64,000 nt of DNA, taken from positions 38,688,001 to 38,752,000 of the forward strand of contig OZ024741.1 in NCBI GenBank assembly GCA_964016885.1, given 5' to 3'. Positions 42,150 through 63,494 of this stretch are shown piece after piece; position 1 is the first letter of the stretch; every line of letters begins with the position of its first letter. A program made the translations under genes and the position numbers. Origin of the DNA: Eledone cirrhosa (lineage: Eukaryota). The notes beneath the pieces were generated by a model. The model was not told the DNA's origin. It searched no databases and saw only the letters and a program-made list of their open reading frames with translations.

Positions 42150-44003
42150 ATATCTATCTTTCTTTATTTGCCACAAGGGCGCACAAAAAATGGGACATTA
42201 CAAGACGTGACGGCGGAGGTTTTACATAAAAATCATATAACATTAATAAATAACAATAAACTATATATAAAATAAAATAACAATTGAAACGTTACTGCGG
42301 GGTTCTTTTACACCCCGTAGATAGAACAACTCTCCACACCAGGAGCACGTTTTGTAGGTGTTCCCTCTTCCCTCTATTTGTGTTCTTCAACCTACAGGTT
42401 TATATACAGAGAAGGCCCATTAACTCGGGCCATCTTCGCCACATTCACCCACCTTTCGGCGAATTTACTGGGGTGTAGCACCTCTCTCTCCACTCTCACC
42501 TTCCTTCTGAAGTGGTACTTAAAGAAGGGGATGAGCTGCTGTCCGGAGAGAAAGGTTTTTGTCCTCAGTCCTTTTAACTTCGTCCACCATATTACCTCTT
42601 TCGCCATAGCCACCAGACAGAGGAAAACCGCCTCTCCTTCGTTCTTAAATGAAGGCGACGGAGTGATCCTCACGATGGACTCGGCTGACAACTGAATTTG
42701 TCCGACACCTGACAGTAGCTGTTCGACATAATTCCACAGGTCGTTCACCCCTGGGCACAGAACAATTGCGTGCAGAACGGTTCCGATGCCCTACTCGCAT
42801 CTTGCTCAGGTACTTTTGGCAAGATCTCTGCAAGGGCGTCCGTGTCTGTAAAATTTTTCTCGAACTGGTAGAGCTCCTCGGTAGCCGTGTCAGGCCAGAG
42901 ACCTCTGGAAGTTATCTATAGGCCCTGGACGGAAAGTCCTCCCGAACAGACTGCTCAGTTCGCCCTCCTCGATGCCTAGAGTTTCCCCGAGAACGTCGTC
43001 GCACTTATCCTCCACTATTCCCCTATAGAATGTCGAAGTGGAGTCTCCGCTGATTGCCGTTTCTGCTTGGTAGAGGGCTGTGAGCGCTTGTAGGCACTCG
43101 AGGTGCCAGGCACCCATTTTCGGTCTTCGCTTGACCCAGGACTGCAGCTCTGTTAGTGAGACGAGTTGTGGAAGAGCTTGTCTCACAAACGACAGCCACA
43201 CCGGTTCACTGGTCAGGAATACCTGGAGATGGCGCAGCCTCAGCGCGTGTTTGTGCCACGGCATGCCCATCCCTCCGTTAGAAGGGTGTTGACAGCAGAT
43301 AGATCTCTTCACTAATGGAGCCTGTTTCTTCCAGAGGAACTTGAAGAGTAGGCGTTCCATTTTGGTAAGTTATTCGCGGGGGCAAGGCACCACTGTCAAG
43401 CGGTATTAGATGACGGACGCTATGTAAGTGTTCACCACCTCCGCTCGACCTTTCAAGGAGAGTTTGCACTCAGCCCACTTCTGGGTGAGTGCTAACACCT
43501 TCGCCGTGACCTCGTTCCAGTTCTTGTCCACCAGGAGATCTGAACCAAACCAGACCCCAAGCAATTTCACCGGTCCTTCCGTCCAGCGTCCAACGACACT
43601 GTTGGAAGGCATGGGTTTCCCTCTCCATGTGCCGAGTTGCAAACCAACAGACTTATTTGGGTTTAGTCTTGTTCTTGTCAACGTTTCGTATTCCTGTAAT
43701 AGGTTGCCGATTACCCCGATTTCCGAGGTTTTCGACACCATTGCGGTTATGTCGTCGGCATAGGCCGACGTTGCTTTCCGCAGTCCTGGTTCCGCAGTAA
43801 CGGCTCGAGAGTCAGTACATACAGAATGGAGGAGAGAGGGCATGCCTGACGGATGAAACGCATGATTTGGAATGGCTCTGATAGGTAGCCATTCGCCTTG
43901 ACTGCCGAGCAGATGCTGGTGTGCATTGCAGCGATCCAGCCTCTGAAGATGGGACCGAAACCCGCCGCCTTGAGAACTGCTTCCATGTATTGATGATCGA
44001 CCT
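42150..44003 (-). mobile_element. Tx1-clade LINE copy A: older subfamily, 5'-truncated in RT, decayed
   Basis: ORF pieces with SAYADD, KLSLKGRAEV and RVNGPSLYINL. The 3' end has AATAAA and a degenerate GATA/TATC flank. Confidence 0.9.
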
Positions 44004-44242
44004 TAAAGATGATCGCTTAAAGACGATCCTTAAAGATGATTGATCTTAAAGATGATCGCTTTTAAAGAGCACCGACATGCTCCCGTACTGCTTGGCCCTC
44101 TGGAGGTAAGCAATATCTGGCATTGCCTCTTTTATCTGGCATTGCCTCTACCGTGCCATTGCTTAAAGCCATCGGTTTCTTGGTTTGCGAGCAGATCGTC
44201 CGGAAGAAAATTGTTTTTCTTAAGGTCGCGGCTCCAATTTCC

Positions 44243-44688
44243 GGGGTGATCCTCACGATGGACTCGGTTGACAACTGAATGCGTCCCATACGTGACAGTA
44301 GCTGTTTGACATAATTCCACATGTTGGTCACCTCTGTGCACTGAACAATTGCGTGCAGAACGGTTTCGATGTCCTACTCGCATCTTGGACAGGTCATTTT
44401 GGCAGGATCTCTGCCAGGGCGTCCGAGATTTTGTCTCGAACTGGTAGAGCTCCTCAGTAGCACTACCAGGCCAGAGACCTCTGGAAGTTATCCATAGGCC
44501 CTGGACGGAAAGTCCTCCCGAACAGACTGGTCAGTTCGTCCTGCTCGATGCCTAGAGTGTCCCCGAGAACGTCGTCGCACTTATCCTCCAATAATCCCCT
44601 ATAGAACGTCGAAGTGGAGTCTCCGCTGTTTGCCGTTTCCGCTTGGTAAAGGGCTGTGAGCGCCTGTAGGCTCTCTCTCTCTCTCGAG
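44243..44688 (-). mobile_element. Tx1 copy B: internal 3'-region fragment similar to copy A
   Basis: Parallels ~42660-43100. Its 5' junction abuts (GATA)n. Confidence 0.85.
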
Positions 44689-44707
44689 ATAGATAGATAG
44701 ATAGATG

Positions 44708-44768
<61 letters not shown>
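44687..44768. repeat. (GATA)n microsatellite, ~20 units
   Basis: Direct observation. Forms the junction between copies B and C. Confidence 0.97.
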
Positions 44769-44999
44769 ATTTCTATTTATTTGCCACGAGGGCACAAAAG
44801 AAGGGGACATTTACACAGTGGGGGAGTTTACATAAATCGAGTAAAGAAAAAAGGAATAACAATAATAATATAACAATAAAAAGTCCTCAAAAGGGAGGGG
44901 GCGTGTTGGGGATTGCACATACCCCCGAAAAGTGTGCAACTCTTTTCGCGGGGGAAGCCCAGAGAGGAGGCGCTCCCCCTTTCCTCTTCACTTCTTCAC

Positions 45000-47900
45000 C
45001 TACAGAACAATGTAGAGAGAAGGCCCATTTACACGGGCCATTCTCGCTTCTTTCACCCGCCTTTCATAAAACTGTCTGGGGCCAAGCACTTCTCTCTCCA
45101 TCCTGATCCTTCTTCCGAAGTGGTATCGGAAGAAGTAAACCAGGTGATGGCCGGAGAGAAAGTCACCCGACCTCAGACCTTTCAGGCGCGTCCACCACAC
45201 AACCTCTTTCATCATGGCTATTACGCACAGAAAGACCGCCTCTGCTTCATTTCTGAAGGGAGGAGGCGGCTTGATGTTCACCACAGACTCGGCGGTTAAT
45301 CGAATCGGCGCCACACGCGACAGCAGTCGTTCGACGTAGCCCCACAGATCGGCAACGCCCGGGCAGTGTACCAGTGCATGCGCAACGGTTTCCTCGTCGC
45401 GCACGCATCTGGGACAGATCTTTTTCGCGGGATCCCTGCCCGGGCGCCCGTGTCTGTAGAGCTTTTCTCGAACGGGCAGAGCCCCCCGGTAACACTGCCA
45501 GGCTAGGGACCTCTGGAAGTTGTCCATGGGTCCCGGGCCGAAAGTTCTACCGAACAGGCTGGCCAGTTCGTCCTCCTCCATGCCTAGCGACTCTCCAAGG
45601 GTGTCGTCGCCCCTGCTAGCCACCAACCCTCTATAGAATGTCGAGGTGGATTCTCCACTGACAGTCGGGTCCGCTTGCCAGATAGCCGTGAGCGCCTGGG
45701 CACACTCGGTGTGCCAGTTGCCCAGTTTTCTCGGTCTTTGCTTCACCCAGGATTGCAGTTCGGTGAGCGAGACGAGCTGTGGGAAGGCTCGCCTCACAAA
45801 CGGGGCCCACACCGGCTGACCGTTGAGGAATACCTGTAGATGCCGTAGCCTCAATGCGTGCCTACGCATCAACAGCCACGGCATACCCAGCCCTCCTTTC
45901 GAAGGGTGCTGGCAGCAGATGGATCTCCTCACCATGGGAGGCCGCTTCTTCCAGAGGAACTGGAAGAGCATGCGTTCCATGATGGTGAGCTTTTCCTTAG
46001 GGCAAGGCACGACGGTCAGGCGGTAGTAGATGACGGACGCTATGTAAGCGTTCGTCACCTCCGCCCGACCTTTCAGTGATAGTTTGCACTTGGCCCACTT
46101 CTGGGTCAGCGCAAACACCCTGCTCGTCACCTCGCCCCAATTCTTCTCCACCTGGAGGTCCGGTCCGAACCAGACCCCGAGCAGCTTCACCGGGCCCTCC
46201 GTCCACCGCCCGACGACACCGTCTAACGGCATCGGTTTGCCCCTCCACGTTCCGAGTTGCAAACCGACTGACTTGTCCTGGTTCAGCTTAGCCCCCGTCA
46301 GCCTTTCGTATTCCTCCAGTAGGGTGGCGATCGCCCCGATTTCCGAGGCGTCCGCCACCATTACTGTTACGTCGTCGGCAGAGGCCGAGACCGCTTTGTG
46401 CAATCCCGGTTCCAGGGGTATGCCCCGCAGCAACTCCAACTTCCGCAGCAGTGGCTCGAGAGTCAATACGTACAGAAGGGAGGAGAGGGGGCACCCCTGT
46501 CTGATGGATCGGGTGATTTGAAACGGCTCCGAGAGGTAGCCGTTTACTTTAATCCTAGAGTAGATGATGCCACTGTGCATGGCAGAAATCCAGCCCCTGA
46601 AAACGGGTCCGAAGCCCGCCGCCGCTAGCACCGCATCCAGGTAACCATGGTCGACCCTATCGAACGCCTTAGATTGATCCAAGTTGATCAGGGCCCCACC
46701 AAAGCCGGGTTCGTAGCCAACCCTCTCTATGATGTATCGCATGAGGTGGAGGTTGTCGTGAATGGACCTGGACGGGATAGCGCATGTCTGCGCGTCTCCC
46801 ACCAAACCACCCACCACAAGCGCCAACCTCTTCGCCAACACCTTGGCCAAAATCTGTAACTCTGCATTCAGCAGAGTTATGGGCCTAAAGTTACTTAAGT
46901 CGTCCCCCTTGCTCTCGTCCTTCCTCACTAGCGTGACCACGCCCTTGGTCACAGAACAGGGAATTCTCCCGTTCTGTTGCCAGTTGCAATAGACAGCCTC
47001 GAGGAGTTCGGAGAACAAGACCGGCATAGCTAAATAAAGTTCGTATGGTAGACCATCGAGACCCGGGGATTTGCGTCTGCTGCATTGGCTGAGCGCTTCC
47101 CCGATTTCAGTGGCTGTGATTGGCCTTTCGCAGCACTCCGCTTCGCCGCTCGAAAGACGCGGTAGACCGTCGAGGTATGGACCGAAGTCCACATCCCCGT
47201 CCGGCCCCCCGCCACCTCCGAACAGTCGAGCAAAGTGCCTTTGAAAGGTCTCGCACATTCGCTCAGGTTCAAGGATCACCCGTCCATCCTGGTCTCGCAA
47301 AGACCGAATGGTGGATTTAATCCCACTCTTGGCTTCTGTCACGCGGGCCCAGCTAACAGCTTTGGTCCCCTCGTTTCCTAAAGCACGTATTTTACTTCGG
47401 ACAACGCAGCCTTCGTGCTTCGCGTCAAAGAACTGGCTCAATGCCGTTCTCGTCGCTAACACTCTGGCTACGTCTCCGCTCCTAATCGCCTCTTCTAGTT
47501 TATCTGTTAACTCCCTTTCCTTCCTATTTCTATTCGCCGCTAGTTCCTTACTGTAACCTATCGAACTTACTCTAATCTCTCTCTTTAGAGATACCCACCA
47601 CCTACTGTTGACGATCGCTCCCGTCAACCGGATCTTAACTAAGCTACTAATCCGGTTTCTGTAATCTTTCTTTGTCGGTAAGGACAAGTTCATCTTCCAG
47701 TAACCGGGACCCTGTCTATGCGTTCTATCAAGGTTGACCACGCAGGTCACTAATTTGTGATCTGAATAGCCAACCATGATCAGTTCTGGACAACTAAATA
47801 CGTCCCTATCCTTACTCCTAACCAAAAACCTATCTAGGTACGATCTAGATTGTCCACTGCGGTTTGCCCAGGTCCAGGTTGGCGCAGTTGGACAATCTAG

Positions 47901-48418
47901 TCGAAATCTATCGACCAGGTCGAATCGATCGAGTAACCCCTTGAGGCTGCTACACCCCCCTCTATCGGGACATGCCCCTGCATAGTCCCAACGCGCATCT
48001 AGGATTCCATTCCAGTCCCCCACTAAAAGCAGGGAACGCGACGTTCCTAGAAAAGTCTCCAGACGCTGGAAGAAGTCGGCTCTTTCCGCCCCGAAGGGAG
48101 CATAAAGACCGACCAGTCTGAAAGCCCCGCCTTCACCGCCTCCGACGTCCAGCACCAGTAATCGACCCCCCGGGTCCGAGTGAACAATCTGTACGTCGAG
48201 AGTCAGACGTTTATCCAGCAGTACGGCAACTCCCCCCCCCGCCTCCGGGTTGACAGAGAGATGCGTGCATCTCAAAGTCATCGAAGGCGGGCGCCAGCTG
48301 TCTCACGCTGCTGATCCGACTCTCGCAAACAACCATCACATCTATACTTTGTGACCTGAGGTCACTTAGAAGCTTTGCTTGCTTCCAAGCTGAGCGCGTT
48401 CAAACAGCCAACTCTCAA
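45000..48418 (-). pseudogene. ORF2 (APE-RT-CCHC) of copy C, disrupted
   Basis: GDWN, SDH, KAFDRVDH, QGCPLS, ASADD, CPRC..H..HC. Confidence 0.9.
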
Positions 48419-48423
48419 TTGAT

Positions 48424-50256
48424 CTATTTTGGTGTTGAAAGTGAAGAAAGAAAAGCACTTACCTCTCCGGGTTGCGTAATTTCCATGGCATCAGGTGTGT
48501 TGGGTGGAGGGATGTTTTGTGGTGGTGTGGGGGTACACGTGTGTGGTGGGGTTGGGGTATTTGGAGTTGTGTCAGGGAGAGGGGCGGTTATGGGGAAATC
48601 TTTCAAGAGGACGCGATTCAACGGTTTTAAACAGGGGGGGCTCACGTCCCGTCTAAATTGTTCTTTTAAGGAACGATAAAGGTCCAGAGGGACCTTTATC
48701 ATTTTTAAATGGGTGAAGTTCTCTGTTGAGATAAAGTTTGGCCCTTCGGTCTGCACCATAGGGTTATTGTTTATTAATTTAACCAGTTTTTTGTTTTCTT
48801 TATTTATATATGTGTATTGCAACGTCTTTTTTTGTGATGCTGTCAATGTTTCGGAGAGGGGAGGCGCAGATTTATTTTTGTTTGTTGAGGGTGGGGTGTT
48901 TTTGATTGGAGTTGGTGTTTGTGTGTGGGTTATTTGTGGTGTGCTGGGTGTGTGTTTTCTTTTTTTTCTTTTAACTTGTCTGAAGGCTTCTCCTCCTTCT
49001 TCTTCAGAAGTTGGGGAAACTCTTCAGCGCTAGGTGGGAGGGACGTGTTGTGTGGTTGTTTTTTTTTTTGCGGGAGGGGTAGATTTGTTACTGTTTTTTT
49101 TATTATTTGTTTGGAATGGGTTTTGTGGTGGTGGTGGTAATGTTTGTGTCGTGCTTGTGGTTGGTGATGGTGGTGGTGATGTTTGTGTTGTGGTTGGTGG
49201 TGGTGATTTTTGTGTCGTGCTTGTGTTTGGTGCTGGTGGTGGTGATGTTTGTGTTGTGTTTGTGGTTGGTGGTGTCTGTATTTTGTTTGCTGTGTGTGGT
49301 ATTAGTGTATTTTTGGAGGTGGGTGGTGTTGGTGTACTGTTTGTGGTGGGTGTGGGTAATAGTCCTTTTTGGGGGATACGTTTCGGGCAGTTAGCCTTAA
49401 CGTGTCCCCTTTCCATGCATAAATAGCATGCTGGTCTTCTCCCCTCTACAATTATGTCTATTGGGGTAAGGTCATCCAGCCAGATGCGATCCGGGATTTG
49501 TGCTATTCTTTCGGGCCTCATTTGGACTAGTATGTCGAGGCCCATTCCCAGGAACGCATCTCCAGTTGCCTTCCCCATTGACAGCATTGAGTCTTCGCCC
49601 ATATCAATGAAGCCAGCAATAGCCCACCAGAAGTCCATTGTGGGCAGCATTGTTTTTACTTTTACTCTCTGTGTTCTTCTACCCAAGTAGGAGGGATAGA
49701 AGCTATATGTTGTCGATGAGAGTGGGCTTAGGGAAAGCTTCTCCGCCGTTTCTTTGTCTCGTGTTAGGACCGAAATGCTGCCATAGAGTCGGTCCTTTCG
49801 TATGAAGAGAATATTCTTCATATAGTCTTTTAGGACTAACTCTATTTCCATTTGGCTGGGCTGTGCTGGCTTTCTTGTCTGGTTGAGTATAGTTCTGTAG
49901 AGAACTGTGTTTTCTGCTCTGGCTTTCTTGAATTCAGGGGGGGAGTTAATGGAAAACATTCCGTTCTCCCCCAAAACAATGTGTTTCTTTGCTTCGGCCA
50001 GTTTTTCTCTGGCGGCAGTTAGGTCAATTGGTGTGTATGTAATGGATTGTTTTGTTTTCTGGGCGAAAGTTGCCCTGTCGTTATTTGTATTATTTTCTGT
50101 TTGTTTGTTTTCTGTTTGCTCATTTTCCTTAACATTTGTTTTATCATTTTCTTTGTTTGTTTCAATGTCTAATTTTGTTGTAATTATTTTTTGTTCTTCA
50201 GACTTGGGGGGCGTGGCAGAGCTAATGGCAGACATGTCTGCCGTCTTTTCCGCCAT
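48424..50256 (-). pseudogene. ORF1 of copy C, frameshifted
   Basis: Split into 49030-50283 and 48424-48846, versus the intact ORF1 in copies D and F. Confidence 0.85.
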
Positions 50257-50711
50257 GCTGCCAAGAAAGAAATTTTTCGGCAAAAATAGATATTTATTTT
50301 ACCCCCTAAAAAGGGGGTAAATGCAAAAATGTTTCCCTAAATAACAGGGGTTAGTGTTCCAAATGTGTTGCACTAAAAAATTTATCCGGTACTTACAATA
50401 GTAAGGGTAAATCCCGATGGAATAGCGGAGCCGATGCGAAGCGTGTCTTACTCTATCAAGATAGATAGATAGATAGATAAATTTCTATTTATTTGCCACG
50501 AGGGCACAAAAGAAGGGGACATTTACACAGTGGGGGAGTTTACATAAATCGAGTAAAGAAAAAAGGAATAACAATAATAATATAACAATAAAAAGTCCTC
50601 AAAAGGGAGGGGGCGTGTTGGGGATTGCACATACCCCCGAAAAGTGTGCAACTCTTTTCGCGGGGGAAGCCCAGAGAGGAGGCGCTCCCCCTTTCCTCTT
50701 CACTTCTTCAC

Positions 50712-53700
50712 CTACAGAACAATGTAGAGAGAAGGCCCATTTACACGGGCCATTCTCGCTTCTTTCACCCACCTTTCATAAAACTGTCTGGGACCAAGCA
50801 CTTCTCTCTCCATCCTGATTCTTCTTCCGAAGTGGTATCGGAAGAAGTAAACCAGGTGATGGCCGGAGAGAAAGTCACCCGACCTCAGACCTTTCAGGCG
50901 CGTCCACCACACAACCTCTTTCATCATGGCTATTACGCAGAGAAAGACCGCCTCTGCTTCATTTCTGAAGGGAGGAGGCGGCTTGATGTTCACCACAGAC
51001 TCGGCGGTTAATCGAATCGGCGCCACACGCGACAGCAGTCGTTCGACGTAGCCCCACAGATCGGCAACGCCCGGGCAGTGTACCAGTGCATGCGCAACGG
51101 TTTCCTCGTCGCGCACGCATCTGGGACAGATCTTTTTCGCGGGATCCCTGCCCGGGCGCCCGTGTCTGTAGAGCTTTTCTCGAACGGGCAGAGCCCCCCG
51201 GTAACACTGCCAGGCTAGGGACCTCTGGAAGTTGTCCATGGGTCCCGGGCCGAAAGTTCTACCGAACAGGCTGGCCAGTTCGTCCTCCTCCATGCCTAGC
51301 GACTCTCCAAGGGTGTCGTCGCCCCTGCTAGCCACCAACCCTCTATAGAATGTCGAGGTGGATTCTCCACTGACAGTCGGGTCCGCTTGCCAGATAGCCG
51401 TGAGCGCCTGGGCACACTCAGTGTGCCAGTTGCCCAGTTTTCTCGGTCTTTGCTTCACCCAGGATTGCAGTTCGGTGAGCGAGACGAGCTGTGGGAAGGC
51501 TCGCCTCACAAACGGGGCCCACACCGGCTGACCGTTGAGGAATACCTGTAGATGCCGTAGCCTCAATGCGTGCCTACGCATCAACAGCCACGGCATACCC
51601 AGCCCTCCTTTCGAAGGGTGCTGGCAGCAGATGGATCTCCTCACCATGGGAGGCCGCTTCTTCCAGAGGAACTGGAAGAGCATGCGTTCCATGATGGTGA
51701 GCTTTTCCTTGGGGCAAGGCACGACGGTCAGGCGGTAGTAGATGACGGACGCTATGTAAGCGTTCGTCACCTCCGCCCGACCTTTCAGTGATAGTTTGCA
51801 CTTGGCCCACTTCTGGGTCAGCGCAAACACCCTGCTCGTCACCTCGCCCCAATTCTTCTCCACCTGGAGGTCCGGTCCGAACCAGACCCCGAGCAGCTTC
51901 ACCGGGCCCTCCGTCCACCGCCCGACGACACCGTCTAACGGCATCGGTTTGCCCCTCCACGTTCCGAGTTGCAAACCGACTGACTTGTCCTGGTTCAGCT
52001 TAGCCCCCGTCAGCCTTTCGTATTCCTCCAGTAGGGTGGCGATCGCCCCGATTTCCGAGGCGTCCGCCACCATTACTGTTACGTCGTCGGCATAGGCCGA
52101 GACCGCTTTGTGCAATCCCGGTTCCAGGGGTATGCCCCGCAGCAACTCCAACTTCCGCAGCAGTGGCTCGAGAGTCAATACGTACAGAAGGGAGGAGAGG
52201 GGGCACCCCTGTCTGATGGATCGGGTGATTTGAAACGGCTCCGAGAGGTAGCCGTTTACTTTAATCCTAGAGTAGATGTTGCCACTGTGCATGGCAGAAA
52301 TCCAGCCCCTGAAAACGGGTCCGAAGCCCGCCGCCGCTAGCACCGCATCCAGGTAACCATGGTCGACCCTATCGAACGCCTTAGATTGATCCAAGTTGAT
52401 CAGGGCCCCACCAAAGCCGGGTTCGTAGCCAACCCTCTCTATGATGTATCGCATGAGGTGGAGGTTGTCGTGAATGGACCTGGACGGGATAGCGCATGTC
52501 TGCGCGTCTCCCACCAAACCACCCACCACAAGCGCCAACCTCTTCGCCAACACCTTGGCCAAAATCTGTAACTCTGCATTCAGCAGAGTTATGGGCCTAA
52601 AGTTACTTAAGTCGTCCCCCTTGCTCTCGTCCTTCCTCACTAGCGTGACCACGCCCTTGGTCACAGAACAGGGAATTCTCCCGTTCTGTTGCCAGTTGCA
52701 ATAGACAGCCTCGAGGAGTTCGGAGAACAAGACCGGCATAGCTAAATAAAGTTCGTATGGTAGACCATCGAGACCCGGGGATTTGCGTCTGCTGCATTGG
52801 CTGAGCGCTTCCCCGATTTCAGTGGCTGTGATTGGCCCTTCGCAGCACTCCGCTTCGCCGCTCGAAAGACGCGGTAGACCGTCGAGGTATGGACCGAAGT
52901 CCACATCCCCGTCCGGCCCCCCGCCACCTCCGAACAGTCGAGCAAAGTGCCTTTGAAAGGTCTCGCACATTCGCTCAGGTTCAAGGATCACCCGTCCATC
53001 CTGGTCTCGCAAAGACCGAATGGTGGATTTAATTCCACTCTTGGCTTCTGTCACGCGGGCCCAGCTAACAGCTTTGGTCCCCTCGTTTCCTAAAGCACGT
53101 ATTTTACTTCGGACAACGCAGCCTTCGTGCTTCGCGTCAAAGAACTGGCTCAATGCCGTTCTCGTCGCTAACACTCTGGCTACGTCTCCGCTCCTAATCG
53201 CCTCTTCTAGTTTATCTGTTAACTCCCTTTCCCTCCTATTTCTATTCGCCGCTAGTTCCTTACTGTAACCTATCGAACTTACTCTAATCTCTCTCTTTAG
53301 AGATATCCACCACCTACTGTTGACGATCGCTCCCGTCAACCGCATCTTAACTAAGCTACTAATCCGGTTTCTGTAATCTTTCTTTGTCGGTAAGGACAAG
53401 TTCATCTTCCAGTAACCGGGACCCTGTCTATGCGTTCTATCAAGGTTGACCACGCAGGTCACTAATTTGTGATCTGAATAGCCAACCATGATCAGTTCTG
53501 GACAACTAAATACGTCCCTATCCTTACTCCTAACCAAAAACCTATCTAGGTACGATCTAGATTGTCCACTGCGGTTTGCCCAGGTCCAGGTTGGCGCAGT
53601 TGGACAATCTAGTCGAAATCTATCGACCAGGTCGAATCGATCGAGTAACCCCTTGAGGCTGCTACACCCCCCTCTATCGGGACATGCCCCTGCATAGTCC

Positions 53701-54145
53701 CAACGCGCATCTAGGATTCCATTCCAGTCCCCCACTAAAAGCAGGGAACGCGACGTTCCTAGAAAAGTCTCCAGACGTTGGAAGAAGTCGGCTCTCTCCG
53801 CCCCGAAGGGAGCATAAAGACCGACCAGTCTGAAAGCCCCGCCTTCACCACCTCCGACGTCCAGCACCAGTAATCGACCCCCCGGGTCCGAGTGAACAAT
53901 CTGTACGTCGAGAGTCAGACGTTTATCCAGCAGTACGGCAACTCCCCCCCCCCCCCGCCTCCGGGTTGACAGAGAGATGCGTGCATCTCAAAGTCATCGA
54001 AGGCGGGCGCCAGCTGTCTCACGCTGCTGATCCGACTCTCGCAAACAACCATCACATCTATACTTTGTGACCTGAGGTCACTTAGAAGCTTTGCTTGCTT
54101 CCAAGCTGAGCTCAGGCCACGCGCGTTCAAACAGCCAACTCTCAA
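50712..54145 (-). CDS. ORF2 (APE endonuclease, RT, CCHC) of copy D, one homopolymer frameshift
   Basis: ORF pieces 53915-54145 and 50712-53867. YADD intact. Confidence 0.85.
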
Positions 54146-54150
54146 TTGAT

Positions 54151-55986
54151 CTATTTTGGTGTTGAAAGTGAAGAAAGAAAAGCACTTACCTCTCCGGGTT
54201 GCGTAATTTCCATGGCATCAGGTGTGTTGGGTGGAGGGATGTTTTGTGGTGGTGTGGGGGTACACGTGTGTGGTGGGGTTGGGGTATTTGGAGTTGTGTC
54301 AGGGAGAGGGGCGGTTATGGGGAAATCTTTCAAGAGGACGCGATTCAACGGTTTTAAACAGGGGGGGCTCACGTCCCGTCTAAATTGTTCTTTTAAGGAA
54401 CGATAAAGGTCCAGAGGGACCTTTATCATTTTTAAATGGGTGAAGTTCTCTGTTGAGATAAAGTTTGGCCCTTCGGTCTGCACCATAGGGTTATTGTTTA
54501 TTAATTTAACCAGTTTTTTGTTTTCTTTATTTATATATGTGTATTGCAACGTCTTTTTTTGTGATGCTGTCAATGTTTCGGAGAGGGGAGGCGCAGATTT
54601 ATTTTTGTTTGTTGAGGGTGGGGTGTTTTTGATTGGAGTTGGTGTTTGTGTGTGGGTTATTTGTGGTGTGCTGGGTGTGTGTTTTCTTTTTTTTCTTTTA
54701 ACTTGTCTGAAGGCTTCTCCTCCTTCTTCTTCAGAAGTTGGGGGAAACTCTTCAGCGCTAGGTGGGAGGGACGTGTTGTGTGGTTGTTTTTTTTTTGCGG
54801 GAGGGGTAGATTTGTTACTGTTTTTTTTATTATTTGTTTGGAATGGGTTTTGTGGTGGTGGTGGTGGTAATGTTTGTGTCGTGCTTGTGGTTGGTAATGG
54901 TGGTGGTGATGTTTGTGTTGTGGTTGGTGGTGGTGATTTTTGTGTCGTGCTTGTGTTTGGTGCTGGTGGTGGTGATGTTTGTGTTGTGTTTGTGGTTGGT
55001 GGTGTCTGTATTTTGTTTGCTGTGTGTGGTATTAGTGTATTTTTGGAGGTGGGTGGTGCTGGTGTACTGTTTGTGGTGGATGTGGGCAATAGTCCTTTTT
55101 GGGGGATACGTTTCGGGCAGTTAGCCTTAACGTGTCCCCTTTCCATGCATAAATAGCATGCTGGTCTTCTCCCCTCTACAATTATGTCTATTGGGGTAAG
55201 GTCATCCAGCCAGATGCGATCCGGGATTTGTGCTATTCTTTCGGGCCTCATTTGGACTAGTATATCGAGGCCCATTCCCAGGAACGCATCTCCAGTTGCC
55301 TTCCCCATTGACAGCATAGTGTCTTCGCCCATATCAATGAAGCCAGCAATAGCCCACCAGAAGTCCATTGTGGGCAGCATTGTTTTTACTTTTATTCTCT
55401 GTGTTCTTCTACCCATGTAGGAGGGATAGAAGCTATATGTTGTCGACGAGAGTGGGCTTAGGGAAAGCTGAACCGCCGTTTCTTTGTCTCTTGTTAGGAC
55501 CGAAATGCTGCCATAGAGTCGGTCCTTTCGTATGAAGAGAATATTCTTCATATAGTCTTTTAGGACTAACTCTATTTCCATTTGGCTGGGCTGTGCTGGC
55601 TTTCTTGACTGGTTTAGTATAGTTCTGTATATAACTGTGTTTTCTGCTCTGGCTTTCTTGAATTCTGGGGGGGAGTTAATGGAAAACATTCCGTTCTCCC
55701 CCAAAACAATATGTTTCTTTGCTTCGGCCAGTTTTTCTCTGGCGGCAGTTAGGTCAATTGGTGTGTATGTAATGGATTGCTTTGTTTTCTGGGCGAAAGT
55801 TGCCCTGTCGTTATTTGTATTATTTTCTGTTTGTTTGTTTTCTGTTTGCTCATTTTCCTTAACATTTGTTTTTTCATTTTGTTTGTTTGTTTCAATGTCT
55901 AATTTTGTTGTAATTATTTTTTGTTCTTCAGACTTGGGGGGCGTGGCAGAGCTAATGGCAGACATGTCTGCCATCTTTTCCGCCAT
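54151..55986 (-). CDS. ORF1 (gag-like, CCHC knuckle, Pro/Thr-rich tail) of copy D
   Basis: First ATG at 55986 (MAEKMAD). CYLCMERGHVKANC = CX2CX4HX4C. Basic patch KRKKRK. Confidence 0.92.
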   Translation of the reverse strand: MAEKMADMSAISSATPPKSEEQKIITTKLDIETNKQNEKTNVKENEQTENKQTENNTNNDRATFAQKTKQSITYTPIDLTAAREKLAEAKKHIVLGENGMFSINSPPEFKKARAENTVIYRTILNQSRKPAQPSQMEIELVLKDYMKNILFIRKDRLYGSISVLTRDKETAVQLSLSPLSSTTYSFYPSYMGRRTQRIKVKTMLPTMDFWWAIAGFIDMGEDTMLSMGKATGDAFLGMGLDILVQMRPERIAQIPDRIWLDDLTPIDIIVEGRRPACYLCMERGHVKANCPKRIPQKGLLPTSTTNSTPAPPTSKNTLIPHTANKIQTPPTTNTTQTSPPPAPNTSTTQKSPPPTTTQTSPPPLPTTSTTQTLPPPPPQNPFQTNNKKNSNKSTPPAKKKQPHNTSLPPSAEEFPPTSEEEGGEAFRQVKRKKRKHTPSTPQITHTQTPTPIKNTPPSTNKNKSAPPLSETLTASQKKTLQYTYINKENKKLVKLINNNPMVQTEGPNFISTENFTHLKMIKVPLDLYRSLKEQFRRDVSPPCLKPLNRVLLKDFPITAPLPDTTPNTPTPPHTCTPTPPQNIPPPNTPDAMEITQPGEVSAFLSSLSTPK

Positions 55987-56197
55987 GCTGCCAAGAAAGA
56001 AATTTTTCGGCAAAAATAGATATTTATTTTACCCCCTAAAAAGGGGGTAAATGCAAAAATGTTTCCCTAAATAACAGGGGTTAGTGTTCCAAATGTGTTG
56101 CACTAAAAAATTTATCCGGTACTTACAATAGTAAGGGTAAATCCCGATGGAATAGCGGAGCCGATGCGAAGCGTGTCTTACTCTATCAAGATAGATA

Positions 56198-56941
56198 TAT
56201 TTCTTTATTAGCCACAGGGGCACAAAAGAAGGGGACAAATACAAAGGGGGAAGTTTACATACAATAAAAACGTGTAAAATGTTATCACAGATGGAATTTA
56301 AAAGTTAGTCGATTTTCCCCAATAGAGGGAGACAGTTTATATGGGTAACACAGACCCCCGAAAAAAATGTGCAACCCTCATCTCCAGGAGTACGAAGAGC
56401 TTGTACTCCTTTCCTCTCCTCCTCCTTTTCCTCAACCTACAGGCTGATATAGAGAGAAGGCCCATTCACTCGGGCCATTCTCGCCACTTTCACCCACCTT
56501 TCATAAAACTTGCTGGGGTACAGCACCTCTCTCTCCATCCTGATTCTTCTTCCAAAGTGGTATTTGAAAAAAAGAATCAGTTGTTGGCCGGAGAGAAAGG
56601 TGTCTGACCTCAGCCCTTTCAACCTTGTCCACCATACAACCTCTTTCGCCATAGCTATCACACAAAGGAAAACCGCCTCTCCTTCGTTTTTGAAGGAGGG
56701 TGGCGGTTTGATCATGACAATGGACTCGGTGGTCAACTGGATTGGTCCCACCCGCGACAATAGTCGTTCCACATAGCCCCACAGGTCAGTGACGCCCGGG
56801 CAGTGTATGAATGCGTGCGCGACGGTTTCTTCGTCTCGCACGCACCTCGGACAGATCTTTTTTGCAGGGTCCCTGCCCGGGCGCCCATGTCTGTAGAGCT
56901 TGTCTCGAACTGGTAGAGCTCCTCGGTAGCACTGCCAGGCC
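56198..56941 (-). mobile_element. Tx1 copy E: 5'-truncated 0.74-kb 3' end of a third subfamily
   Basis: ORF 56437-56841 is homologous to the ORF2 C-terminus. Distinct 3' UTR. GATA at both junctions. Confidence 0.92.
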
Positions 56942-57190
56942 AGATAGATAGATAGATAAATTTCTATTTATTTGCCACGAGGGCACAAAAGAAGGGGACA
57001 TTTACACAGTGGGGGAGTTTACATAAATCGAGTAAAGAAAAAAGGAATAACAATAATAATATAACAATAAAAAGTCCTCAAAAGGGAGGGGGCGTGTTGG
57101 GGATTGCACATACCCCCGAAAAGTGTGCAACTCTTTTCGCGGGGGAAGCCCAGAGAGGAGGCGCTCCCCCTTTCCTCTTCACTTCTTCAC

Positions 57191-60100
57191 CTACAGAACA
57201 ATGTAGAGAGAAGGCCCATTTACACGGGCCATTCTCGCTTCTTTCACCCACCTTTCATAAAACTGTCTGGGACCAAGCACTTCTCTCTCCATCCTGATTC
57301 TTCTTCCGAAGTGGTATCGGAAGAAGTAAACCAGGTGATGGCCGGAGAGAAAGTCACCCGACCTCAGACCTTTCAGGCGCGTCCACCACACAACCTCTTT
57401 CATCATGGCTATTACGCACAGAAAGACCGCCTCTGCTTCATTTCTGAAGGGAGGAGGCGGCTTGATGTTCACCACAGACTCGGCGGTTAATCGAATCGGC
57501 GCCACACGCGACAGCAGTCGTTCGACGTAGCCCCACAGATCGGCAACGCCCGGGCAGTGTACCAGTGCATGCGCAACGGTTTCCTCGTCGCGCACGCATC
57601 TGGGACAGATCTTTTTCGCGGGATCCCTGCCCGGGCGCCCGTGTCTGTAGAGCTTTTCTCGAACGGGCAGAGCCCCCCGGTAACACTGCCAGGCTAGGGA
57701 CCTCTGGAAGTTGTCCATGGGTCCCGGGCCGAAAGTTCTACCGAACAGGCTGGCCAGTTCGTCCTCCTCCATGCCTAGCGACTCTCCAAGGGTGTCGTCG
57801 CCCCTGCTAGCCACCAACCCTCTATAGAATGTCGAGGTGGATTCTCCACTGACAGTCGGGTCCGCTTGCCAGATAGCCGTGAGCGCCTGGGCACACTCAG
57901 TGTGCCAGTTGCCCAGTTTTCTCGGTCTTTGCTTCACCCAGGATTGCAGTTCGGTGAGCGAGACGAGCTGTGGGAAGGCTCGCCTCACAAACGGGGCCCA
58001 CACCGGCTGACCGTTGAGGAATACCTGTAGATGCCGTAGCCTCAATGCGTGCCTACGCATCAACAGCCACGGCATACCCAGCCCTCCTTTCGAAGGGTGC
58101 TGGCAGCAGATGGATCTCCTCACCATGGGAGGCCGCTTCTTCCAGAGGAACTGGAAGAGCATGCGTTCCATGATGGTGAGCTTTTCCTTGGGGCAAGGCA
58201 CGACGGTCAGGCGGTAGTAGATGACGGACGCTATGTAAGCGTTCGTCACCTCCGCCCGACCTTTCAGTGATAGTTTGCACTTGGCCCACTTCTGGGTCAG
58301 CGCAAACACCCTGCTCGTCACCTCGCCCCAATTCTTCTCCACCTGGAGGTCCGGTCCGAACCAGACCCCGAGCAGCTTCACCGGGCCCTCCGTCCACCGC
58401 CCGACGACACCGTCCAACGGCATCGGTTTGCCCCTCCACGTTCCGAGTTGCAAACCGACCGACTTGTCCTGGTTCAGCTTAGCCCCCGTCAGCCTTTCGT
58501 ATTCCTCCAGTAGGGTGGCGATCGCCCCGATTTCCGAGGCGTCCGCCACCATTACTGTTACGTCGTCGGCATAGGCCGAGACCGCTTTGTGCAATCCCGG
58601 TTCCAGGGGTATGCCCCGCAGCAACTCCAACTTCCGCAGCAGTGGCTCGAGAGTCAATACGTACAGAAGGGAGGAGAGGGGGCACCCCTGTCTGATGGAT
58701 CGGGTGATTTGAAACGGCTCCGAGAGGTAGCCGTTTACTTTAATCCTAGAGTAGATGTTGCCACTGTGCATGGCAGAAATCCAGCCCCTGAAAACGGGTC
58801 CGAAGCCCGCCGCCGCTAGCACCGCATCCAGGTAACCATGGTCGACCCTATCGAACGCCTTAGATTGATCCAAGTTGATCAGGGCCCCACCAAAGCCGGG
58901 TTCGTAGCCAACCCTCTCTATGATGTATCGCATGAGGTGGAGGTTGTCGTGAATGGACCTGGACGGGATAGCGCATGTCTGCGCGTCTCCCACCAAACCA
59001 CCCACCACAAGCGCCAACCTCTTCGTCAACACCTTGGCCAAAATCTGTAACTCTGCATTCAGCAGAGTTATGGGCCTAAAGTTACTTAAGTCGTCCCCCT
59101 TGCTCTCGTCCTTCCTCACTAGCGTGACCACGCCCTTGGTCACAGAACAGGGAATTCTCCCGTTCTGTTGCCAGTTGCAATAGACAGCCTCGAGGAGTTC
59201 GGAGAACAAGACCGGCATAGCTAAATAAAGTTCGTATGGTAGACCATCGAGACCCGGGGATTTGCGTCTGCTGCATTGGCTGAGCGCTTCCCCGATTTCA
59301 GTGGCTGTGATTGGCCCTTCGCAGCACTCCGCTTCGCCGCTCGAAAGACGCGGTAGACCGTCGAGGTATGGACCGAAGTCCACATCCCCGTCCGGCCCCC
59401 CGCCACCTCCGAACAGTCGAGCAAAGTGCCTTTGAAAGGTCTCGCACATTCGCTCAGGTTCAAGGATCACCCGTCCATCCTGGTCTCGCAAAGACCGAAT
59501 GGTGGATTTAATCCCACTCTTGGCTTCTGTCGCGCGGGCCCAGCTAACAGCTTTGGTCCCCTCGTTTCCTAAAGCACGTATTTTACTTCGGACAACGCAG
59601 CCTTCGTGCTTCGCGTCAAAGAACTGGCTCAATGCCGTTCTCGTCGCTAACACTCTGGCTACGTCTCCGCTCCTAATCGCCTCTTCTAGTTTATCTGTTA
59701 ACTCCCTTTCCCTCCTATTTCTATTCGCCGCTAGTTCCTTACTGTAACCTATCGAACTTACTCTAATCTCTCTCTTTAGAGATACCCACCACCTGCTGTT
59801 GACGATCGCTCCCGTCAACCGCATCTTAACTAAGCTACTAATCCGGTTTCTGTAATCTTTCTTTGTCGGTAAGGACAAGTTCATCTTCCAGTAACCGGGA
59901 CCCTGTCTATGCGTTCTATCAAGGTTGACCACGCAGGTCACTAATTTGTGATCTGAATAGCCAACCATGATCAGTTCTGGACAACTAAATACGTCCCTAT
60001 CCTTACTCCTAACCAAAAACCTATCTAGGTACGATCTAGATTGTCCACTGCGGTTTGCCCAGGTCCAGGTTGGCGCAGTTGGACAATCTAGTCGAAATCT

Positions 60101-60619
60101 ATCGACCAGGTCGAATCGATCGAGTAACCCCTTGAGGCTGCTACACCCCCCTCTATCGGGACATGCCCCTGCATAGTCCCAACGCGCATCTAGGATTCCA
60201 TTCCAGTCCCCCACTAAAAGCAGGGAACGCGACGTTCCTAGAAAAGTCTCCAGACGTTGGAAGAAGTCGGCTCTCTCCGCCCCGAAGGGAGCATAAAGAC
60301 CGACCAGTCTGAAAGCCCCGCCTTCACCACCTCCGACGTCCAGCACCAGTAATCGACCCCCCGGGTCCGAGTGAACAATCTGTACGTCGAGAGTCAGACG
60401 TTTATCCAGCAGTACGGCAACTCCCCCCCCGCCTCCGGGTTGACAGAGAGATGCGTGCATCTCAAAGTCATCGAAGGCGGGCGCCAGCTGTCTCACGCTG
60501 CTGATCCGACTCTCGCAAACAACCATCACATCTATACTTTGTGACCTGAGGTCACTTAGAAGCTTTGCTTGCTTCCAAGCTGAGCTCAGGCCACGCGCGT
60601 TCAAACAGCCAACTCTCAA
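57191..60619 (-). CDS. ORF2: APE endonuclease, reverse transcriptase and CCHC zinc finger (non-AUG start)
   Basis: LRVGCLNARGL, VCES, GVA, YAP, GDWN, LDR, SDH; KSPGLDG, FRPITLLN, DQSKAFDRV, QGCPLS, YADD, LLGVWF; CPRC-X8-H-X4-C. Confidence 0.96.
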   Translation of the reverse strand: MRVGCLNARGLSSAWKQAKLLSDLRSQSIDVMVVCESRISSVRQLAPAFDDFEMHASLCQPGGGGGVAVLLDKRLTLDVQIVHSDPGGRLLVLDVGGGEGGAFRLVGLYAPFGAERADFFQRLETFLGTSRSLLLVGDWNGILDARWDYAGACPDRGGCSSLKGLLDRFDLVDRFRLDCPTAPTWTWANRSGQSRSYLDRFLVRSKDRDVFSCPELIMVGYSDHKLVTCVVNLDRTHRQGPGYWKMNLSLPTKKDYRNRISSLVKMRLTGAIVNSRWWVSLKREIRVSSIGYSKELAANRNRRERELTDKLEEAIRSGDVARVLATRTALSQFFDAKHEGCVVRSKIRALGNEGTKAVSWARATEAKSGIKSTIRSLRDQDGRVILEPERMCETFQRHFARLFGGGGGPDGDVDFGPYLDGLPRLSSGEAECCEGPITATEIGEALSQCSRRKSPGLDGLPYELYLAMPVLFSELLEAVYCNWQQNGRIPCSVTKGVVTLVRKDESKGDDLSNFRPITLLNAELQILAKVLTKRLALVVGGLVGDAQTCAIPSRSIHDNLHLMRYIIERVGYEPGFGGALINLDQSKAFDRVDHGYLDAVLAAAGFGPVFRGWISAMHSGNIYSRIKVNGYLSEPFQITRSIRQGCPLSSLLYVLTLEPLLRKLELLRGIPLEPGLHKAVSAYADDVTVMVADASEIGAIATLLEEYERLTGAKLNQDKSVGLQLGTWRGKPMPLDGVVGRWTEGPVKLLGVWFGPDLQVEKNWGEVTSRVFALTQKWAKCKLSLKGRAEVTNAYIASVIYYRLTVVPCPKEKLTIMERMLFQFLWKKRPPMVRRSICCQHPSKGGLGMPWLLMRRHALRLRHLQVFLNGQPVWAPFVRRAFPQLVSLTELQSWVKQRPRKLGNWHTECAQALTAIWQADPTVSGESTSTFYRGLVASRGDDTLGESLGMEEDELASLFGRTFGPGPMDNFQRSLAWQCYRGALPVREKLYRHGRPGRDPAKKICPRCVRDEETVAHALVHCPGVADLWGYVERLLSRVAPIRLTAESVVNIKPPPPFRNEAEAVFLCVIAMMKEVVWWTRLKGLRSGDFLSGHHLVYFFRYHFGRRIRMEREVLGPRQFYERWVKEARMARVNGPSLYIVL

Positions 60620-60624
60620 TTGAT

Positions 60625-62460
60625 CTATTTTGGTGTTGAAAGTGAAGAAAGAAAAGCACTTACCTCTCCGGGTTGCGTAATTTCCATGGCATCAGGTGTG
60701 TTGGGTGGAGGGATGTTTTGTGGTGGTGTGGGGGTACACGTGTGTGGTGGGGTTGGGGTATTTGGAGTTGTGTCAGGGAGAGGGGCGGTTATGGGGAAAT
60801 CTTTCAAGAGGACGCGATTCAACGGTTTTAAACAGGGGGGGCTCACGTCCCGTCTAAATTGTTCTTTTAAGGAACGATAAAGGTCCAGAGGGACCTTTAT
60901 CATTTTTAAATGGGTGAAGTTCTCTGTTGAGATAAAGTTTGGCCCTTCGGTCTGCACCATAGGGTTATTGTTTATTAATTTAACCAGTTTTTTGTTTTCT
61001 TTATTTATATATGTGTATTGCAACGTCTTTTTTTGTGATGCTGTCAATGTTTCGGAGAGGGGAGGCGCAGATTTATTTTTGTTTGTTGAGGGTGGGGTGT
61101 TTTTGATTGGAGTTGGTGTTTGTGTGTGGGTTATTTGTGGTGTGCTGGGTGTGTGTTTTCTTTTTTTTCTTTTAACTTGTCTGAAGGCTTCTCCTCCTTC
61201 TTCTTCAGAAGTTGGGGGAAACTCTTCAGCGCTAGGTGGGAGGGACGTGTTGTGTGGTTGTTTTTTTTTTGCGGGAGGGGTAGATTTGTTACTGTTTTTT
61301 TTATTATTTGTTTGGAATGGGTTTTGTGGTGGTGGTGGTGGTAATGTTTGTGTCGTGCTTGTGGTTGGTAATGGTGGTGGTGATGTTTGTGTTGTGGTTG
61401 GTGGTGGTGATTTTTGTGTCGTGCTTGTGTTTGGTGCTGGTGGTGGTGATGTTTGTGTTGTGTTTGTGGTTGGTGGTGTCTGTATTTTGTTTGCTGTGTG
61501 TGGTATTAGTGTATTTTTGGAGGTGGGTGGTGCTGGTGTACTGTTTGTGGTGGATGTGGGCAATAGTCCTTTTTGGGGGATACGTTTCGGGCAGTTAGCC
61601 TTAACGTGTCCCCTTTCCATGCATAAATAGCATGCTGGTCTTCTCCCCTCTACAATTATGTCTTTTGGGGTAAGGTCATCCAGCCAGATGCGATCCGGGA
61701 TTTGTGCTATTCTTTCGGGCCTCATTTGGACTAGTATATCGAGGCCCATTCCCAGGAACGCATCTCCAGTTGCCTTCCCCATTGACAGCATAGTGTCTTC
61801 GCCCATATCAATGAAGCCAGCAATAGCCCACCAGAAGTCCATTGTGGGCAGCATTGTTTTTACTTTTATTCTCTGTGTTCTTCTACCCATGTAGGAGGGA
61901 TAGAAGCTATATGTTGTCGACGAGAGTGGGCTTAGGGAAAGCTGAACCGCCGTTTCTTTGTCTCTTGTTAGGACCGAAATGCTGCCATAGAGTCGGTCCT
62001 TTCGTATGAAGAGAATATTCTTCATATAGTCTTTTAGGACTAACTCTATTTCCATTTGGCTGGGCTGTGCTGGCTTTCTTGACTGGTTTAGTATAGTTCT
62101 GTATATAACTGTGTTTTCTGCTCTGGCTTTCTTGAATTCTGGGGGGGAGTTAATGGAAAACATTCCGTTCTCCCCCAAAACAATATGTTTCTTTGCTTCG
62201 GCCAGTTTTTCTCTGGCGGCAGTTAGGTCAATTGGTGTGTATGTAATGGATTGCTTTGTTTTCTGGGCGAAAGTTGCCCTGTCGTTATTTGTATTATTTT
62301 CTGTTTGTTTGTTTTCTGTTTGCTCATTTTCCTTAACATTTGTTTTTTCATTTTGTTTGTTTGTTTCAATGTCTAATTTTGTTGTAATTATTTTTTGTTC
62401 TTCAGACTTGGGGGGCGTGGCAGAGCTAATGGCAGACATGTCTGCCATCTTTTCCGCCAT
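60625..62460 (-). CDS. ORF1 (gag-like CCHC protein) of copy F
   Basis: ATG at 62460, zinc knuckle, stop TAG at 60625-60627. Confidence 0.93.
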   Translation of the reverse strand: MAEKMADMSAISSATPPKSEEQKIITTKLDIETNKQNEKTNVKENEQTENKQTENNTNNDRATFAQKTKQSITYTPIDLTAAREKLAEAKKHIVLGENGMFSINSPPEFKKARAENTVIYRTILNQSRKPAQPSQMEIELVLKDYMKNILFIRKDRLYGSISVLTRDKETAVQLSLSPLSSTTYSFYPSYMGRRTQRIKVKTMLPTMDFWWAIAGFIDMGEDTMLSMGKATGDAFLGMGLDILVQMRPERIAQIPDRIWLDDLTPKDIIVEGRRPACYLCMERGHVKANCPKRIPQKGLLPTSTTNSTPAPPTSKNTLIPHTANKIQTPPTTNTTQTSPPPAPNTSTTQKSPPPTTTQTSPPPLPTTSTTQTLPPPPPQNPFQTNNKKNSNKSTPPAKKKQPHNTSLPPSAEEFPPTSEEEGGEAFRQVKRKKRKHTPSTPQITHTQTPTPIKNTPPSTNKNKSAPPLSETLTASQKKTLQYTYINKENKKLVKLINNNPMVQTEGPNFISTENFTHLKMIKVPLDLYRSLKEQFRRDVSPPCLKPLNRVLLKDFPITAPLPDTTPNTPTPPHTCTPTPPQNIPPPNTPDAMEITQPGEVSAFLSSLSTPK

Positions 62461-62671
62461 GCTGCCAAGAAAGAAATTTTTCGGCAAAAATAGATATTTA
62501 TTTTACCCCCTAAAAAGGGGGTAAATGCAAAAATGTTTCCCTAAATAACAGGGGTTAGTGTTCCAAATGTGTTGCACTAAAAAATTTATCCGGTACTTAC
62601 AATAGTAAGGGTAAATCCCGATGGAATAGCGGAGCCGATGCGAAGCGTGTCTTACTCTATCAAGATAGATA

Positions 62672-63415
62672 TATTTCTTTATTAGCCACAGGGGCACAAA
62701 AGAAGGGGACAAATACAAAGGGGGAAGTTTACATACAATAAAAACGTGTAAAATGTTATCACAGATGGAATTTAAAAGTTAGTCGATTTTCCCCAATAGA
62801 GGGAGACAGTTTATATGGGTAACACAGACCCCCGAAAAAAATGTGCAACCCTCATCTCCAGGAGTACGAAGAGCTTGTACTCCTTTCCTCTCCTCCTCCT
62901 TTTCCTCAACCTACAGGCTGATATAGAGAGAAGGCCCATTCACTCGGGCCATTCTCGCCACTTTCACCCACCTTTCATAAAACTTGCTGGGGTACAGCAC
63001 CTCTCTCTCCATCCTGATTCTTCTTCCAAAGTGGTATTTGAAAAAAAGAATCAGTTGTTGGCCGGAGAGAAAGGTGTCTGACCTCAGCCCTTTCAACCTT
63101 GTCCACCATACAACCTCTTTCGCCATAGCTATCACACAAAGGAAAACCGCCTCTCCTTCGTTTTTGAAGGAGGGTGGCGGTTTGATCATGACAATGGACT
63201 CGGTGGTCAACTGGATTGGTCCCACCCGCGACAATAGTCGTTCCACATAGCCCCACAGGTCAGTGACGCCCGGGCAGTGTATGAATGCGTGCGCGACGGT
63301 TTCTTCGTCTCGCACGCACCTCGGACAGATCTTTTTTGCAGGGTCCCTGCCCGGGCGCCCATGTCTGTAGAGCTTGTCTCGAACTGGTAGAGCTCCTCGG
63401 TAGCACTGCCAGGCC
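62672..63415 (-). mobile_element. Tx1 copy G: duplicate of copy E with the same truncation point
   Basis: Same sequence as 56198-56941 at an offset of 6474. Followed by (GATA)n at 63416-63445. Confidence 0.93.
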
Positions 63416-63494
63416 AGATAGATAGATAGATAGATAGATTGATAGAAACAGAGGGGAGTGTGCAGTTGAGGAGGACCGTGTCTTTGTGATAGAG

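Follow-up and report, generated by a model that had tools for sequence, protein, structure and literature searches.

Why are LINE (long interspersed nuclear element) segments lined up in one orientation, with GATA microsatellite between them, in the genome of Eledone cirrhosa? The locus lies on contig OZ024741.1 (assembly GCA_964016885.1), and the window analysed here is the stretch of 64,000 nucleotides from position 38,688,001 to 38,752,000. Seven minus-strand LINE segments span 42159-63415 of the window, in the order G-F-E-D-C-B-A in element orientation. The original prediction was that a Tx1-clade family targets (GATA)n, primes through a TATC tail and stacks at one locus by regenerating its own target. 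We consider it probable that young LINEs of L1/Tx1 type insert almost only in (TATC)n/(GATA)n and in one orientation, likely through nicking of the GATA strand by their apurinic/apyrimidinic-type (APE) endonuclease, and that they stack via the persisting target.

The genome-wide 3' junctions of the two young subfamilies, F (window copies C, D and F) and E (window copies E and G), carry the first part of the evidence. Exact matches to the last 25 nt of subfamily F were followed directly by TATC in 544 of 552 cases (reversed controls, 0), and the top 40 loci of subfamily E all continued with TATC (40/40). The end motif AATAAA-GAAA-(TATC)3 was found 11,323 times genome-wide against 2 for the control, and the first 30 examined were all family ends (30/30). 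The 204 ends that were collected formed seven clusters of at least four members, plus singletons.

At the 5' side, full-length F copies showed ATCT followed by TGATAGAG in 30/30 fetched loci (30 of 40 scored hits, including two window copies). Because such a full-length junction could be an inherited head, the truncated copies were used for the 5' test. 5' truncation affects 34 of the 40 top E loci (these 34 include two pairs of tandem duplicates), and 28 of the truncated copies carry a TATC-phase repeat of at least 8 nt within 12 nt of the 5' junction; the background is 51 in 75,216 positions (0.07%). Two of the six misses, at loci L112 and L132, fit duplications ending in non-repeat bases, and a third, L117, reflects a deletion where a TATC site is known. 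Microsatellite-specific LINEs have been defined by more than 20% of flanks being of one sequence type (the Kojima criterion, PMC4494074, in the text available), and both the 3' flanks of F and the truncated 5' flanks lie above this value. Poly(A) tails or 5' flanks without GATA in most genomic copies had been named in advance as the outcome that would speak against targeting; A6 within 30 nt of the end was found in 0/47 F and 0/40 E ends, and the truncated 5' junctions are those just given. Full length is common in subfamily F, where 37/38 copies chosen by their 3' end keep the 5' end versus 6/40 in E, which is unusual for a LINE. Three unlinked truncated E copies (L088, L147 and L149) have a common 5' breakpoint at about E position 3441-3443, which may reflect a hot spot of pausing or microhomology, or else the re-mobilisation of a truncated copy.

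Comparison of empty and filled sites showed that the target is there before the element. A dispersed, unclassified host repeat (94 copies by exact anchors; loci L237-L281) contains the tract TACAC[AG](TCTA)n, frequently bearing a TATTTATC marker, and then CCAACAGG. Family insertions were present within the TCTA tract in 14 of 41 sampled copies, one of the 14 being the locus that led to the search. All 14 are in plus orientation, and their subfamilies and breakpoints differ. The other 27 copies are empty, and 26 of them have at least two TCTA units; the copy at L275 holds an apparent 8-nt remnant of an F 3' end.

Target duplications in the marked host repeat measured 17 bp (L240), 16-18 bp (L263), 15 bp (L262), and 17-20 and 19 bp (L277). 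Other informative sites gave 21 bp (L132), 21 bp (L053/L016/L017), 13 bp (L123/124), 11 bp (L113) and 10 bp (L103), and all informative duplications (10-21 bp) start at the TATC after the element end. The target therefore exists before insertion and is duplicated, as is asked of target-specific elements under the same Kojima definition. The orientation is fixed, the 3' junction always starts in TATC phase, and poly(A) is not integrated.

The perfect 3' TATC runs are 4-70 nt long, the shortest being 4-5 nt; since the runs are short and the informative ones match the target, the run appears to be mostly target and not element tail, and a long element-encoded TATC tail is ruled out. Of the predicted priming through a TATC tail, what is left is at most a short read-through UAUC(U). 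Full-length copies can bring along a small number of additional repeat units as a head on their 5' side: at L264 the host TATTTATC marker is followed by imperfect repeat of about 57 nt (an inherited head), and the head variant TCTCTCTCTAT precedes E copies at the unlinked loci L140, L141 and L146. The predicted targeting of (GATA)n is thus supported by the 3' ends, the truncated 5' junctions, the empty and filled sites and the duplications.

Several points weigh against this reading. TATC is missing after 8 of the 552 F ends. Three truncated E copies (L131, L134 and L139) are off-target, with (TATC)2 nowhere in the locus at L131 and L134 and none at the 5' junction at L139; the 3' flanks of L131 and L134 nonetheless start TATCT. 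No duplication beyond 4-7 nt was found at L074/L022 and L279, and L117 and L254 show a 5' deletion. Pure repeats leave the nick position and head length unreadable. The samples are top-scoring young copies, chiefly from contigs C1 and C2, in which older copies are under-represented.

A sister lineage with another target serves as a control, and one relic of it lies in the window:

3583-5219, plus strand: old truncated copy of an (ATT)n-associated sister lineage, about 70% identical to F

ATT repeats stand at its end and likewise at the end of most of its 30 best matches, and ATT-associated relatives at L162 and L178 show duplications near 20 bp. Protein search revealed a young sister family, J, with many open 1150-aa second open reading frames (ORF2s). 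In all 25 ends read, of 29 loci, AATAAATGAAATC is followed by ATTATT. Besides arrays of 10 and 4 copies, J occurs in additional pairs or triples, with (ATT)5-7 as spacers; the largest array (L332-L338, C1 423.36-423.42 Mb) has ten head-to-tail full-length copies with 15-nt (ATT)5 spacers and an age gradient. The J ORF2 is 67-71% identical to those of F, E and a third TATC subfamily. Between J and the TATC families identity is 58-64% in the endonuclease and 81-84% in the reverse transcriptase (RT), and 35 endonuclease positions are common to the three TATC proteins and different in J.

The insertion could proceed as follows. The APE endonuclease would nick the bottom (GATA) strand in phase, while the RNA, cleaved slightly downstream of the AATAAA near its end, would pair with the primer through a short read-through UAUC(U); a UAUCU of this kind would fit the TATCT start at L131 and L134. 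The top strand would be cut up to about 21 nt downstream. With the transcript start lying in the upstream repeat tract, the end of the complementary DNA (the head) could pair with the (TATC)n overhang and give a precise full-length 5' junction. The target would persist on both sides of each insertion and so permit stacking. With about a third of suitable tracts occupied, new copies would often come to lie beside old ones, more often at the 5' side, and duplicates would be added by unequal exchange, whether between the flanking tracts or between adjacent copies.

Two other readings of the targeting were weighed. Specificity might come mainly from RNA-DNA pairing, with a loosely specific endonuclease and priming only at sites that pair with the read-through UAUC 3' end. 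TATC starts every 3' junction, even at the off-target L131 and L134, the target switch between the sister families parallels the switch in 3' flank, and pairing models exist (PMC6007223 and PMC7265360, in their available text: RTE tails, and a helper step in R1Bm and SART1). Pairing of the RNA 3' end accounts for the downstream side only, whereas the truncated copies, which have no head, carry upstream TATC in 28/34 cases, often longer than downstream. The TATC and ATT families also diverge more in the endonuclease than in RT, although endonucleases may just evolve faster. We regard this reading as improbable.

Far less probable still is that the elements insert anywhere and make the GATA tracts by reiterative copying of their tail, later copies accumulating passively. 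It could draw on the first 21 Mb of C1, where 26 of 100 T-phase (TATC)3 starts come right after a family end, and on the few 3' tracts that exceed typical empty tracts (L254). But the tract is already present in the empty paralogous sites (26/27), the target duplications include the host's own marker bases, and 3' runs go down to 4-5 nt, so that tract-making is largely refuted. Nicking within pre-existing (GATA)n remains the preferred explanation, and with it we return to the window, where the array is composed as follows:

42159-43991, minus strand: copy A, old and 5'-truncated, the 3' part of a broken ORF2, ending in GTGGCAAATAAAGAAAGA and then a degenerate TATC flank
43992-44068, no strand: A/B scar, a short imperfect tandem repeat with 13-27 bp periods, GATA absent
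44069-44686, minus strand: copy B, A-type ORF2 fragment plus an ORF1-like inverted piece, without 3' end
44687-44767, plus strand: B/C junction, (AGAT)20 tract of 20 units including one GGAT
44768-50458, minus strand: copy C, full-length subfamily F, ORF1 frameshifted
50459-50479, plus strand: C/D junction, (AGAT)5 tract
50480-56188, minus strand: copy D, a full-length member of subfamily F with intact ORF1 (625 aa stop to stop) and a frame shift in ORF2 at a G run
56189-56197, plus strand: D/E junction, AGATAGATA, 9 nt
56198-56941, minus strand: copy E, subfamily E, truncated at its 5' side to 744 bp and identical to G
56942-56958, plus strand: E/F junction, (AGAT)4 tract
56959-62662, minus strand: copy F, full-length, 5704 bp, ORF1 and ORF2 both open
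62663-62671, plus strand: F/G junction, AGATAGATA, 9 nt, same as D/E
62672-63415, minus strand: copy G, 744-bp 5'-truncated subfamily E copy
63416-63446, plus strand: outer flank of G, (AGAT)n tract of 7.8 units with one interruption

The segments belong to three subfamilies: C/D/F, E/G (about 76-80% identical to F) and A/B (about 72-77%). The three subfamily F copies (C, D and F) are all full-length and measure 5691-5709 bp; the oldest is C, with 40 substitutions versus D. The subfamilies had been taken to differ in age; E/G proved as young as C/D/F, with intact full-length E copies elsewhere, and only A/B is old. Copy A is 87-90% identical to its best relatives among the fetched loci. The ORF2 fragment of copy B (44242-44686) is 88.7% identical to A, its lower part resembles an inverted ORF1-region fragment, and (CT)7 at 44671-44686 reads as an AG expansion within its first bases. 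The predicted head-to-tail order of seven minus-strand copies holds as to number and strand and fails for B, with its inverted fragment and missing 3' end.

(AGAT)n tracts of 9-81 nt occupy five junctions (B/C, C/D, D/E, E/F and F/G) and the outer flank of G, just where the original prediction had placed them, and the A/B junction is the scar, and the 3' flank of A the degenerate repeat, that it described. Copies C, D, E, F and G end in AATAAA..GAAA(TT/TA) and then TATC without poly(A), as predicted; B lacks this end. Just two (GATA/TATC)2 runs occur in the rest of the 64-kb window, so the GATA at the junctions is not chance. The 5' junction of F (62658-62669 and its equivalents) reads CTATC-TT-GATAG, a short palindrome spanning the repeat/element boundary, and TGATAG also occurs within the head of another subfamily. 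About 600 bp from the array lies a 16.5-kb degenerate 24-bp satellite (25031-41566) with a resemblance to telomeric TTAGGG repeats. The outer GATA tract adjoins a 22-bp minisatellite (GTATATGTGTGTATCTGTGTCT, 63494-64000), in which single TATC motifs are present and no insertion was found within the window.

The seven segments do not stand for seven independent insertions. E and G are identical in 744/744 positions, break off at the same 5' point and have identical 9-nt junctions; they are therefore one insertion copied through unequal exchange or misassembly. D and F differ by nine substitutions and a G-run difference, and they alone share two alleles (positions 925 and 1109) that are absent from 46 other copies (48 full-length F-type copies compared). 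The E/G identity and these private alleles rule out seven separate insertions, and [G-F] and [E-D] are, from the shared variants, not four independent ones. Copy F is D-like in its 5' part through position 1109 and resembles the unlinked copy L076 in its 3' part, where it shares five alleles between 2868 and 4248 with L076 that D lacks. The array would thus go back to about six insertions (A, B, C, D, E/G and an F-type copy), together with one unequal exchange or haplotype mis-join. G-F-E-D would result if one allele, outer-G-D-C, underwent exchange with another, outer-F'-E-D-C, inside the 5.7-kb element.

Whether the exchange took place in a chromosome or in the assembly concerns this locus only. 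The G-F-E-D part could be a chimera of the two haplotypes just named, in which case no seven-piece chromosome exists; E equals G, and the change of F from D-like to L076-like is exactly what a join inside a 5.7-kb repeat is expected to leave. A real unequal crossover would give the identical sequence, and comparable local duplicates exist at other loci, namely a triple at C2 33.30-33.32 Mb and near-identical J pairs. We judge the chimera rather unlikely, and it leaves the genome-wide targeting result untouched. The same 9-nt E-F junction was also found at two other loci, where the E breakpoints differ and the F copies differ from the window F by 33-34 substitutions and have no private alleles in common. 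These differences disfavour movement of an E-F composite as one RNA, and coincidence or an older event appears more likely.

Stacking is common beyond this locus. A family-type 3' end lies just upstream of 19/44 F copies, a family member lies just downstream of 25/49, and two or three elements occur within one marked tract at L262, L264 and L277. Local duplication also contributes, as in the triple on C2 with its identical 69-nt spacers and shared rare alleles. Since about a third of the host-repeat tracts are filled, random tract choice would give stacking rates of the observed order; a special self-homing is unneeded, with 14/41 tracts of an unrelated repeat filled. Stacking follows from target persistence plus recombination. 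The predicted stacking by regenerated target is thus supported genome-wide as regards persistence of the target, and part of the window array is owed instead to recombination or misassembly.

The arrays may also have a polarity. In 11 comparisons within same-family arrays the 3'-most copy was the more diverged, judged by private substitutions or by lower identity; in one it was equal and in one less diverged, and four near-identical pairs or triples were uninformative. Speaking against a polarity are the reverse case L364/L096, the tie, the small counts in several J pairs and the ascertainment bias that the F pairs carry from how they were found. Growth in the 5' direction, with the oldest copy at the 3' end, is only suggested by these comparisons.

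The proteins were read from copy F. ORF1 (60625-62502, minus strand) has 625 aa stop to stop, and ORF2 (57191-60691, minus strand) has 1166 aa stop to stop and comprises the APE endonuclease, the RT and a C-terminal zinc motif. Pfam domains in ORF2 are Exo_endo_phos (41-248), RVT_1 (533-777) and zf-RVT (998-1053, below cut-off). Among solved structures human L1 ORF2p matches best (E 7.8e-49 over 26-876) and R2 reaches only E 2.6e-23, over the RT, a coarse comparison in a library that holds few clades; the APE catalytic motifs align with human L1 ORF2p. ORF1 has a weak zf-CCHC match (E 0.018, below cut-off; a single knuckle), and its Atlas look-alikes are CCHC/RRM proteins (score 0.89-0.92). 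A separate ORF1 with a zinc knuckle is a Tx1 feature, though not unique to Tx1. By the domains of ORF2 and the RT match the elements are assigned to the L1 group (L1 plus Tx1) of APE-type retrotransposons without long terminal repeats (non-LTR). No named Tx1 protein was among the 30 relatives looked up, whose names are hypothetical or generic, and the tree holds unnamed relatives only. A relative with 64% identity is named from Argonauta hians, which points to an octopod as the likely host. A single-sequence fold of the endonuclease was of low confidence (pLDDT 52) and was not used.

The ORF2 of subfamily F has no AUG ahead of its first catalytic motif. In all F copies inspected, the ORF1 stop is overlapped by an ATA codon (ATAG; 60623-60628, minus strand), and E, J and the third subfamily have Met at that position. 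This suggests non-AUG coupled initiation, or use of the ORF2p of another family.

With at least 11,323 ends the families are a large force in this genome, and GATA microsatellites are its hot spots of insertion, a point of relevance to marker design, repeat-array assembly and structural variation in cephalopods. Young intact sister families on different repeats form a natural pair for testing target choice: with ORF2s 67-71% identical and marked tracts that reveal nick phase and duplication length, control by endonuclease versus RNA is directly testable. A wider reading is tentatively put forward, that of an undescribed octopod LINE radiation with one microsatellite per family: F, E and no fewer than five further subfamilies would use TATC, and J would use ATT. 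Its RNAs would have a head of upstream repeat, and new copies would preferentially enter just 5' of older ones, building arrays that are polarised and ordered by age. Such arrays would stand at thousands of interstitial sites, with about one in three suitable GATA tracts occupied, and the switch from TATC to ATT would map to a few of the 35 endonuclease positions. If true, the radiation would be a natural setting in which to reprogram how LINEs choose their targets.

We found no GATA- or TATC-specific family in the literature searched, with Repbase and Dfam outside its coverage, so prior cataloguing is possible. TATC is not in the main text of PMC4494074, and no GATA case stands in the available text of PMC4640811, PMC5753468, PMC8869645 and PMC9004415. 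Thirteen recently active L1-Tx1 families are described in Octopus vulgaris (PMC13282606), in the accessible part of which "target" and "GATA" are never mentioned; target analysis is likewise absent from the accessible parts of PMC8967140 and PMC9115989. Microsatellite targets on record in the available text of PMC3812793 are ACAY, AC, TC, TTC and TAA, and the recognition mechanism is called not well understood there; RNA-target pairing and endonuclease loops are treated in PMC6007223, PMC7265360 and PMC1950540.

Comparison with known systems, made by description from the available parts of the sources, places the families as follows. Head-to-tail arrays growing from one side are known from Drosophila HeT-A/TART; those are telomeric, whereas the arrays here are interstitial and microsatellite-borne. 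Waldo and Mino belong to the R1 clade and Dong to R4, other clades than the present one, whose ORF2 is closest to L1 among solved structures. All three are microsatellite-specific non-LTR elements (ACAY, AC and TAA), and the repeat class of Dong is that of the ATT sister (PMC3812793). SART1/TRAS1 and R1Bm are repeat-specific APE elements with RNA-target pairing at priming (PMC7265360), but they are specific for telomeres or ribosomal DNA and the poly(A) of SART1 is integrated, while the families here target interstitial microsatellites and integrate no poly(A). SINEU-3 and Tx1-Mar of crocodilians resemble the present arrays in tandem insertions sandwiching a target-site duplication, those of SINEU-3 being read as sequential insertion (PMC4494074); their target is a Mariner and SINEU has poly(A), whereas here autonomous LINEs stand up to 10 deep on a microsatellite. 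Closest are Kibi on (TC)n and Koshi on (TTC)n of teleosts and the crocodilian Tx1 on (TTCC)n/(TTTC)n (PMC4494074, PMC3812793), which are likewise two-ORF APE LINEs on one microsatellite type that is pyrimidine-rich on the named strand. Unlike Kibi and Koshi, the families here use (TATC)n for F and E and (ATT)n for the sister, with thousands of copies. This is a microsatellite-specific LINE system like Kibi/Koshi, but with a new target, an ATT-specific sister and a new host group.

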